Assembly: GCF_003334315.1 (NCBI RefSeq)
Contig: NZ_QOWR01000011.1
Strand: one strand, 5' to 3'
DNA: 64,000 bases
Source of the DNA: Escherichia coli
GTDB lineage: Bacteria; Pseudomonadota; Gammaproteobacteria; Enterobacterales; Enterobacteriaceae
Below, piece after piece: positions 10,335-40,428 of the stretch. The notes under the pieces were generated by a model that saw only the letters and a program-made list of their open reading frames with translations, had not been told where the DNA came from and ran no database searches. How positions within the stretch are numbered: the stretch's first letter is position 1; each line of letters begins with the position of its first letter. The translations under genes and the position numbers were made by a program.

Positions 10335-11066
<732 letters not shown>

Positions 11067-11078
11067 GCTGAAGAAATA

Positions 11079-11763
<685 letters not shown>

Positions 11764-12237
11764 TTAACTTAAAGAGTCTGTTTCAGGACATGAAATATCC
11801 AATCCGGGCAGACGGGTAATGATTCTGCTCATCACCACACCTGCCAGCAATGCAGGAATGATGCGGACAACGAGACTGTCACCAGAAAGAATGTTTTCAA
11901 ACAACTCCGAGGAAGCCATGCCCTTAATATGTACAATAACTGCACAATAGATCTCGGTGATAACGACGCCACCTATGCCACCAGCCAGACAACGATAATT
12001 TTTCTGTGACCCGATCTTTTCCGGCAGACAGGCGACCATCACGCCGGTTAACAATGCAGGAATAGCTCCCGTAGTAATCGACAATAAGAGAAACAATGGA
12101 AGTACCTGTATTATTACCAAAAGAACCAGCGGTTCTTTTGCGAAGAATATGTAGAGGACAAGAAACAGAACACCAATTAACGGTCCTAAAACCGCAAAAT
12201 AAAGTCCGTGATGTATTACCCGACGTGAAACAGACAT
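11764..12237 (-). CDS. cbrB: Inner membrane protein CbrB
   Basis: Hydrophobic about 157-aa protein starting at internal Met (MSVSRRVIHHGLYFAVLG...); the ORF-track N-terminal extension was rejected; exact start uncertain. Confidence 0.7.
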   Translation of the reverse strand: MSVSRRVIHHGLYFAVLGPLIGVLFLVLYIFFAKEPLVLLVIIQVLPLFLLLSITTGAIPALLTGVMVACLPEKIGSQKNYRCLAGGIGGVVITEIYCAVIVHIKGMASSELFENILSGDSLVVRIIPALLAGVVMSRIITRLPGLDISCPETDSLS

Positions 12238-12284
12238 ATCAAACACCCTTAACTTACCTTTGAGCGCCAATTTAAGCGGGGTAA

Positions 12285-12300
12285 GTGAAGGGAGTGTGAA
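12285..12300 (-). promoter_or_regulatory. cre-tag (CreB response-regulator binding direct repeat) upstream of cbrB
   Basis: Minus strand reads TTCACactcccTTCAC, matching the TTCACnnnnnnTTCAC cre-tag consensus, about 50 bp upstream of the cbrB start. Confidence 0.65.
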
Positions 12301-12303
12301 GAA

Positions 12304-12969
12304 CTATGCCGTAATATCCCAACCACGCGCTTTCCACAGTTCCGGTAACTGCGAAAGATGGGTAAAGGTGGTGACTTTCGGGTGAACGATCGGCTTATTG
12401 TGCGGGTCGGCGCAGAAGTAGAACACTTCCATACCTGCGTCGATACCAGATTGCGCACCGGCAACTGAGTCATCAACCAGAATGCAGTTTTCTACATTTA
12501 CATTCATCGCTTTTGCCGCATGGAACATTAACGCCGGGTCTGGCTTCCAGCGCTGAATATCGTAGCCGCTGAACAGTTTATCCGGGAAGTAGTGCAACAT
12601 ATTCAGCTTGCCCATAGAATGCTGCATTTTGTTATTTGGGCCGTTAGATACCACACACATTGGCGCAGTGATCGCTGACAGGAGCGCTCCAGCCCCTTCG
12701 ATGGCTTCCAGTTCTGAATCGAACAGCCGAGCGACTTCTGCACGGTAAACGTGTTCAGCTTCTGTTTTCGCTAACGTAACACCATGTTCAAGGGAAACAA
12801 TATCGATAATTTCGTACAGTTTTACACCTTTGAAACGTTTGAATACCTCTTCAGGATCGAGCGTAATACCAAATTCCTGAAACATCGTTACATATGCGCG
12901 AGAGCAAATGACTTCACTGTCGACCAGCGTACCGTCGCAGTCGAAAAATACCGCTTCTATCCGGGACAT
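12304..12969 (-). CDS. yieH: HAD-superfamily phosphatase (6-phosphogluconate phosphatase-like)
   Basis: 221-aa ORF with HAD motif I FFDCDGTLVDSE near the N-terminus. Confidence 0.85.
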   Translation of the reverse strand: MSRIEAVFFDCDGTLVDSEVICSRAYVTMFQEFGITLDPEEVFKRFKGVKLYEIIDIVSLEHGVTLAKTEAEHVYRAEVARLFDSELEAIEGAGALLSAITAPMCVVSNGPNNKMQHSMGKLNMLHYFPDKLFSGYDIQRWKPDPALMFHAAKAMNVNVENCILVDDSVAGAQSGIDAGMEVFYFCADPHNKPIVHPKVTTFTHLSQLPELWKARGWDITA

Positions 12970-13133
12970 GCCTTTCCTTTTTAATCAGTTTAACGTTTTC
13001 GTAGAGCCGATTTGCGCAACGCAATCGTTGCCGTATAAGTAAATCCAATAAAAAAGTCTCTCACAAACGCGCCTATTGTCGCATTTTGGTATACGATAGC
13101 GACGGATTTTCCCTCCTTGTTCGGAAATAGATA

Positions 13134-14471
13134 ATGAGTCAACAACACACAACCCAGGCTTCTGGCCAGGGGATGCTGGAACGCGTGTTTAAACTGCGCG
13201 AACATGGCACGACGGCACGGACCGAAGTGATCGCTGGTTTTACCACCTTCCTGACGATGGTTTACATCGTTTTTGTTAACCCGCAAATTCTTGGCGTTGC
13301 TGGCATGGATACCAGCGCCGTCTTCGTCACTACCTGTCTGATTGCTGCATTCGGCAGTATTATGATGGGACTGTTTGCTAACCTGCCAGTTGCACTGGCA
13401 CCCGCTATGGGCCTGAATGCGTTCTTCGCTTTTGTCGTTGTGCAGGCGATGGGCTTGCCGTGGCAGGTCGGGATGGGCGCAATCTTCTGGGGCGCGATAG
13501 GTCTGCTGTTACTGACGATTTTCCGCGTTCGCTACTGGATGATTGCCAACATTCCGGTGAGTCTGCGTGTGGGCATCACCAGCGGTATCGGTCTGTTCAT
13601 TGGTATGATGGGACTGAAGAATGCAGGTGTGATTGTCGCTAACCCGGAAACGCTGGTCAGCATCGGTAATCTGACTTCTCACAGCGTGCTGCTGGGGATC
13701 CTCGGCTTCTTCATCATCGCCATTCTGGCCTCGCGCAACATTCACGCGGCGGTGCTGGTTTCCATCGTGGTGACAACGCTGCTGGGCTGGATGCTGGGTG
13801 ATGTCCACTATAATGGCATCGTTTCTGCGCCGCCGAGCGTAATGACTGTCGTGGGTCATGTAGATTTAGCCGGTTCGTTTAACCTCGGCCTGGCAGGGGT
13901 GATTTTCTCTTTCATGCTGGTCAACCTGTTTGACTCCTCCGGTACGCTGATTGGCGTGACCGATAAAGCAGGTCTGGCGGATGAGAAGGGTAAATTCCCG
14001 CGCATGAAGCAGGCGCTATATGTCGACAGTATCTCTTCTGTTACCGGTTCGTTTATCGGTACTTCTTCTGTTACGGCGTATATCGAGTCTTCTTCCGGCG
14101 TTTCTGTTGGTGGTCGTACCGGTCTGACGGCAGTCGTTGTTGGTCTGCTGTTCCTGCTGGTTATCTTTCTGTCGCCGCTGGCGGGGATGGTGCCAGGCTA
14201 CGCTGCAGCTGGTGCGCTGATTTACGTTGGCGTGCTGATGACTTCCAGTCTGGCACGCGTGAACTGGCAGGATCTTACTGAATCTGTTCCGGCGTTTATT
14301 ACCGCCGTGATGATGCCGTTCAGCTTTTCGATTACCGAAGGTATTGCGCTGGGCTTTATCTCCTACTGCGTAATGAAAATCGGTACCGGACGTCTGCGTG
14401 ATCTAAGCCCGTGCGTAATCATCGTTGCGCTGCTGTTTATCCTGAAGATTGTGTTTATCGACGCTCACTAA
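13134..14471 (+). CDS. adeP: Adenine permease (NCS2/AzgA family)
   Basis: 445-aa polytopic membrane ORF; divergent from yieH. Confidence 0.88.
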   Translation: MSQQHTTQASGQGMLERVFKLREHGTTARTEVIAGFTTFLTMVYIVFVNPQILGVAGMDTSAVFVTTCLIAAFGSIMMGLFANLPVALAPAMGLNAFFAFVVVQAMGLPWQVGMGAIFWGAIGLLLLTIFRVRYWMIANIPVSLRVGITSGIGLFIGMMGLKNAGVIVANPETLVSIGNLTSHSVLLGILGFFIIAILASRNIHAAVLVSIVVTTLLGWMLGDVHYNGIVSAPPSVMTVVGHVDLAGSFNLGLAGVIFSFMLVNLFDSSGTLIGVTDKAGLADEKGKFPRMKQALYVDSISSVTGSFIGTSSVTAYIESSSGVSVGGRTGLTAVVVGLLFLLVIFLSPLAGMVPGYAAAGALIYVGVLMTSSLARVNWQDLTESVPAFITAVMMPFSFSITEGIALGFISYCVMKIGTGRLRDLSPCVIIVALLFILKIVFIDAH

Positions 14472-40366: not shown

Positions 40367-40412
40367 CTTTTCACTCACATTCATCACGATGGCAAAAGAC
40401 TATTGTCTGAAA

Positions 40413-40428
40413 GTGAAGTCCTTGTGAA
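40413..40428 (-). promoter_or_regulatory. cre-tag (CreB binding direct repeat) upstream of cbrA
   Basis: Minus strand reads TTCACaaggacTTCAC, about 47 bp upstream of the cbrA ATG. Confidence 0.65.

Follow-up and report, generated by a model that had tools for sequence, protein, structure and literature searches.

Within a 64-kb stretch of Escherichia coli DNA (here termed the window), a perfect TTCAC-N6-TTCAC direct repeat lies on the minus strand between yieH and cbrB, and we judge, at roughly nine chances in ten, that it serves as the operator for CreB in an activator-dependent promoter driving cbrB and, in this strain, also cbrC. Functionally, it is almost certainly the site at which the CreBC stress sensor turns on these two colicin-tolerance genes. 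The membership of cbrB and cbrC in the CreBC regulon has already been published; hence, control of these genes by CreBC is known, and the site is a genuine member of a described class. It explains the switching-on of cbrB and cbrC in E. coli and offers nothing new for K-12-type strains; what the present analysis adds is a footprint across genera, a -10-like element at a fixed offset, and a candidate insulation hairpin. The elements of the locus, named after strain 13C1065T (a 100% match to region 11000..13200, with adeP, yieH, cbrB, cbrC, and yieK annotated), are as follows.

12304..12969, minus strand: yieH (6-phosphogluconate phosphatase, 221 aa), the co-oriented upstream core gene, with its TAG stop at 12306..12304
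12285..12300, minus strand: cre tag, the putative CreB binding site, with TTCAC repeats at 12300..12296 and 12289..12285, ACTCCC between them, and an 11-bp period
12269..12274, minus strand: -10-like hexamer TAAATT, exactly 10 nt past the tag; predicted -10
12244..12250, minus strand: Shine-Dalgarno (SD) sequence of cbrB, AAGGGTG, which reads AAGGGAG in the K-12-type and B2-type alleles
11764..12237, minus strand: cbrB (yieI), a small inner-membrane protein of 157 aa (Pfam code PF26516), the first gene 3' of the tag, with its ATG at 12237..12235
11128..11715, minus strand: cbrC (yieJ), a colicin E2 tolerance protein, whose gene follows cbrB after 48 nt

The repeat, TTCAC-ACTCCC-TTCAC (TTCACACTCCCTTCAC), occupies 12300..12285 on the minus strand, starting 3 nt past the yieH stop and ending 47 nt 5' of the cbrB ATG, on the cbrB strand. 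The gap between the two genes (12303..12238) is exactly 66 bp, a spacing that recurs in the RefSeq annotation of other strains, including K-12 MG1655. Direct reading of the sequence thus bears out the initial annotation with respect to the motif, its position at 12285-12300, and the 66-bp gap. The tandem TTCAC half-sites have a period of 5 + 6 = 11 bp, i.e., one helical turn, as in PhoB/OmpR-type sites. The adjacent cbrC is presumed to be cotranscribed with cbrB, and a terminator scan found no terminator-like site after cbrB toward cbrC down to 11600.

The designation cbr stands for CreB-regulated, and yieI was reportedly placed among the tag-bearing genes by Avison et al. in 2001. The TTCAC-N6-TTCAC tag (TTCACnnnnnnTTCAC) is the published recognition signature of CreB/BlrA (the cre/blr tag; PMC3660660); CreB binds the cre tag in vitro (PMC3962086; review), and the tag of creD is critical for its binding (PMC4689548). 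The label “creBC regulon” is applied to cbrB in a study of the response to colicin M, in which creD, cbrA, cbrB, and cbrC are jointly upregulated no later than 30 min after exposure and are among the first induced genes (PMC3599342). In a CreC-activated mutant, six genes are upregulated more than 10-fold in a CreB-dependent manner, and the text of this Avison-lab preprint attributes the colicin E2 tolerance of the mutant to overproduction of YieI (10.1101/615310), whereas a 2010 paper that it cites names YieJ/CbrC instead. The CreB-dependent expression of cbrB and cbrC that had been proposed for the window is hence consistent with both of these papers (PMC3599342; 10.1101/615310), and published work ties the response of these genes under CreBC to colicin E2 tolerance and envelope stress. 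As Salmonella CreB can bind a promoter without the typical tag (PMC7873081), the tag is not the sole determinant of binding.

A search of the whole window recovered one further perfect tag, located before another cbr gene.

40413..40428, minus strand: another perfect cre tag, TTCACAAGGACTTCAC, located between the divergent genes yidR and cbrA and ending 46 nt before the cbrA (yidS) ATG (40366)

Could such matches be functionless chance occurrences? A motif with 10 specified bases is expected about 0.16 times per 64 kb, and when one mismatch is allowed the count (7 observed versus 3.7 expected) is at chance level, so that only perfect sites stand out from the background. The two perfect matches, however, were reached in just 1 of 100 dinucleotide shuffles of the window, and both lie 46 to 47 nt before the start codons of cbr genes (cbrB and cbrA), on the coding strand. 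Moreover, the tag is invariant among E. coli lineages despite varying flanks, and it precedes homologues of cbrB with 31 to 38% identity in four other genera in different contexts (see below). These comparative data, drawn from sequence, effectively refute chance as an explanation, and we accord it a practically negligible probability. A candidate auxiliary site, the one-mismatch tag TTCACCCGAAAGTCAC at 12386..12371 (minus strand), which is 70 nt upstream of the perfect one and within the 3'-terminal part of yieH, was dropped as probably meaningless because one-mismatch matches occur at chance frequency.

Within E. coli, we aligned 91 nt from five lineages that carry cbrB, namely, the K-12 type (cbrBC), the B2 type (cbrB only), Esc31, ECAMP047, and the window. 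The 16-nt tag and TAAATT are invariant in all five, and seven other positions vary, including the one immediately preceding the tag and two between the tag and TAAATT. Of 5426 complete E. coli genomes, about 4274 have the yieH-cbrB junction; cbrA, in comparison, is a core gene, with coverage of at least 80% in 5417 of the 5426. In two O157-type strains (L002 and L003), yieH is retained, espY4 stands in place of cbrB, and there is no tag; homology of both strains to the window stops at the yieH stop. The bgl-yieJ-yieI region has been described as a horizontally acquired island abutting yieH (PMC2646131), an account with which the absence of the tag in these cbrB-less strains agrees. The last ~110 nt of yieH (window 12304-12420) show only 82 to 86% identity to the window in the same two strains. 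Judging from the sequences, the island seems to have its boundary within the 3'-terminal part of yieH.

The CbrB family (PF26516) is very small, with 53 matches among 50%-identity cluster representatives, many of which are fragments. Using the narrow family alignment as the query, we placed 10 diverged full-length members on contigs or genomes, comprising loci from three Citrobacter species, C. youngae, two Silvania species, Klebsiella spallanzanii, Pragia fontium, and two metagenome contigs. Their protein identity in the family alignment is 31 to 38%. All 10 have a tag before the start codon, in five of them as TTCAC-N6-TTCAC and in the other five as TTCAT-N6-TTCAC, with the first repeat altered. 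The perfect form is seen in C. youngae, the two Silvania species, P. fontium, and the metagenome contigs L009 and L010; the altered form is seen in the three Citrobacter species, K. spallanzanii, and the metagenome contigs L011-L013. Altogether, a perfect or one-mismatch tag occupies the equivalent place before 12 cbrB-family genes. From the end of the tag to the start codon, the distance is 47 to 50 nt in the two perfect-tag contigs and in the genomes of Enterobacteriaceae; in Pragia, it is 59 nt. The upstream neighbor varies: L010 has a yieH-like gene, Citrobacter and Silvania have a Lactamase_B_2 (phnP-like) gene, and Klebsiella and Pragia have other sequence. Given that the tag is kept when the upstream gene differs, it moves with cbrB, and comparison of these sequences places it with cbrB, outside the yieH core region.

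In contig L010 (615-755), the yieH-like gene is followed by a cbrB allele with only 37% protein identity, and the 66-nt promoter gap between them, with its tag, hairpin, and SD sequence, is nearly identical to that of E. coli; here, the promoter is thus conserved far better than the protein. One seeming homologue with 69% identity to CbrB (P0128/L008) was set aside as an artifact of the protein collection: it is E. coli DNA in which T replaces every C, probably through assembly of bisulfite-converted reads from a public run. P0137, which resembles it in look, was also set aside.

The second element of the promoter is a hexamer of the form TAnnnT. In an alignment anchored on the tag (the window and loci L001 and L009-L021), all 12 cbrB-family promoters and that of cbrA (13/13) have it at precisely the same offset, 10 nt past the tag, in the forms TAAATT, TAATCT, TATCTT, TACTTT, TATTGT, TATCCT, TACCTT, and TAGTCT; the sequence of the 10-nt spacer itself is not conserved. 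A consensus scan of 11600..13200 found no consensus sigma-70 -35/-10 promoter, as is expected for an activator-dependent promoter, and the spacings from the two TTCAC repeats to TAnnnT, 20 and 9 bp, are neither of them 16 to 18 bp. Phosphorylated CreB, a response regulator of the OmpR/PhoB family, would bind the two TTCAC half-sites as a head-to-tail dimer. Its site would span roughly -38 to -23, standing in for a -35 element, and the bound regulator would bring in RNA polymerase with sigma-70 at TAAATT (12274..12269), a weak -10 lying 10 bp downstream. Transcription is predicted to start at ~12265..12260, ~25 nt before the cbrB ATG and within the 66-bp gap, giving a leader of ~25 nt that carries the SD sequence AAGGGTG.

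This arrangement recalls PhoB-dependent promoters, in which the activator site replaces the -35 element and ends ~10 bp upstream of the -10 hexamer; indeed, CreC was first described as PhoM. Shared with those promoters are direct repeats of 11-bp period, a winged-helix regulator of the OmpR/PhoB family, and an apparent lack of a usable -35, and the fixed 10-nt offset fits, by analogy, a PhoB-like geometry. The differences are that the half-site is TTCAC rather than CTGTCAT and that the -10 and start are here only predicted; we infer these two elements, together with the PhoB-like mode of recruitment, from the alignment and the analogy. There is no yieH or cbrB entry in the Term-seq 3'-end supplements of PMC7815308, and neither the gene name nor the coordinate prefix of cbrB gave a match in the supplements of PMC4782308 and PMC3415461. 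With a start inside the 66-bp gap, transcription would not depend on the yieH promoter. The earlier suggestion that cbrB is transcribed independently of yieH hence gains inferential support: the tag and -10-like element occur behind unrelated genes and are missing where cbrB is missing, and the promoter elements lie wholly within the gap.

Two other tag-bearing promoters set this geometry in context. That of cbrA matches cbrB closely, with 46 rather than 47 nt to the ATG and the TAnnnT element, here TAGTCT (40402..40397), 10 nt past the tag; it differs in that its upstream neighbor, yidR, is divergent and in having no hairpin. The proven CreB target creD has the same tag at the creC/creD junction of MG1655, inside the last codons of creC. 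Like the cbrB tag, this TTCAC-N6-TTCAC repeat is read on the coding strand, coincides with or closely follows the stop codon of a co-oriented upstream gene (creC and yieH, respectively), and precedes the start codon by a few tens of nucleotides. It differs in ending 61 nt before the ATG and in lacking TAnnnT at +10, with a TAGTCT found instead 22 nt after the tag. The fixed 10-nt offset is hence a feature of the cbr promoters that not all members of the regulon share.

A distinct regulator, either NsrR or another response regulator of the OmpR/PhoB family, might be the chief user of the site, which we regard as highly unlikely. The repeats are an exact CreB/BlrA signature, and we take them to be unlike the PhoB or CpxR consensus sites. 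For NsrR, a low-ranking ChIP-seq peak has been reported in the yieH-cbrB intergenic region of strain CFT073, 4 bp from the yieI start, together with TACTTACCTTT, a weak motif at a distance of 18 nt from yieI (PMC5320621). The score of this motif is low, however, and it is part of the 3' arm of the hairpin described below, clear of the TTCAC repeats. Furthermore, cbrB is coinduced with creD and cbrA (PMC3599342), which also speaks for CreB as the regulator acting at the tag.

The tag and the cbrB ribosome-binding site are in turn embedded in a predicted RNA hairpin.

12239..12299, minus strand: imperfect inverted repeat (hairpin) with 20-nt arms that are 85% complementary and a 21-nt loop

Its 5' arm (12299..12280) comprises nearly the whole tag plus TTACC, its 3' arm (12258..12239) runs through the ribosome-binding site of cbrB as far as the base preceding the ATG, and the -10-like hexamer sits in the 21-nt loop. 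For the window, the predicted fold has an energy of -23.2 kcal/mol and a z score of -4.22, with 0 of 200 shuffles as stable. The z scores, each computed against 200 dinucleotide shuffles per sequence, are as follows.

Escherichia-type promoters: K-12 type, -5.87; B2 type, -4.92; L010, -6.96 (0/200 shuffles)
Other genera: C. youngae, -4.25; K. spallanzanii, -3.37; Silvania, -2.51; Pragia, -4.23
Others: MG1655 creD, -4.12; L009, +0.21; Citrobacter R56, -0.53; cbrA, +0.81

In L010, a T is inserted in one arm and a matching A in the other, so that TTACC/GGTAA becomes TTATCC/GGATAA and the stem is longer. The hairpins of C. youngae, K. spallanzanii, Silvania, Pragia, and creD are nonhomologous to that of E. 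coli; they likewise bury the ribosome-binding site, with a 5' arm that coincides with or precedes the predicted -10 and start. For creD (L005 3138-3181, the MG1655 creC-creD junction), CATAGTCTTC, which holds the -10-like TAGTCT, pairs with GAAGACTATG, which contains the creD SD sequence and start codon, an expression of the same design idea as in the cbrB hairpin.

These folds raise the question of whether the repeat is kept mainly as the 5' arm of a hairpin, serving as a terminator or stabilizer of yieH or sequestering the cbrB ribosome-binding site, rather than as a protein site. The pairing of the tag with the SD/ATG region through a 20-nt inverted repeat, the z scores of -4.2 to -7.0 with 0/200 shuffles in the Escherichia-type sequences, and the matching T/A insertion of L010 would all suit such a role. 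Against it, the tag of C. youngae, K. spallanzanii, and Silvania is located upstream of the 5' arm; no significant hairpin is present in L009 and Citrobacter R56; and cbrA has a perfect tag with no hairpin. Even where the hairpin is shifted or absent, the promoters retain the TTCAC repeats, the 11-bp period of these repeats, and the distance separating them from the start codon. An intrinsic yieH terminator was considered and rejected, as the loop is 21 nt long and the tail, UUUGAUAU, is only half U; accordingly, the terminator scan (11600..13200) found no terminator in the 66-bp gap. A search of 11000..13300 gave no Rfam match at an E value of ≤1. Since the tag is kept without, or apart from, the hairpin, the latter is more likely an added layer than the reason for the tag, and we consider a mainly structural role to be a long shot. 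Part of the conservation of the tag within Escherichia could nevertheless reflect the hairpin.

Returning to the CreB operator as the preferred reading, the cassette repeatedly lies directly behind a co-oriented gene, and one possibility is that the hairpin insulates it from that gene. RNA reading through from upstream would be folded shut, with the ribosome-binding site as the 3' arm, or terminated, while the 5' arm would be missing from CreB-initiated transcripts, leaving them translatable. cbrA, the sole tag-bearing promoter examined with a divergent upstream gene, can be reached by no such read-through, and there is no hairpin there. With predicted starts, the accessibility of the ribosome-binding site is lower in the long than in the short transcript for 12 of 13 cbrB-family sequences. 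When compared with shuffles of the 5' part, the fractions are 0.06 to 0.6, with no single sequence being significant; hence, despite the strong fold z scores, insulation is not statistically established by the accessibility measure. Taking these findings together, we tentatively put forward, as a proposal that we ourselves hold to be doubtful, that the cbrB promoter may be a portable cassette (tag, 10 nt, and TAnnnT), found from Escherichia to Pragia and mostly wrapped in a hairpin, which would make expression strictly CreB gated. The tag-SD hairpin is previously unreported, and it may silence read-through from yieH. If true, this would be a compact way for a promoter behind another gene to depend strictly on its activator.

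With regard to the encoded protein, an exact match to the CbrB sequence of this strain is found in one 214-aa ENA entry only. The 157-aa CbrB of the window has ~95 to 96% identity to the common form of 155 aa.
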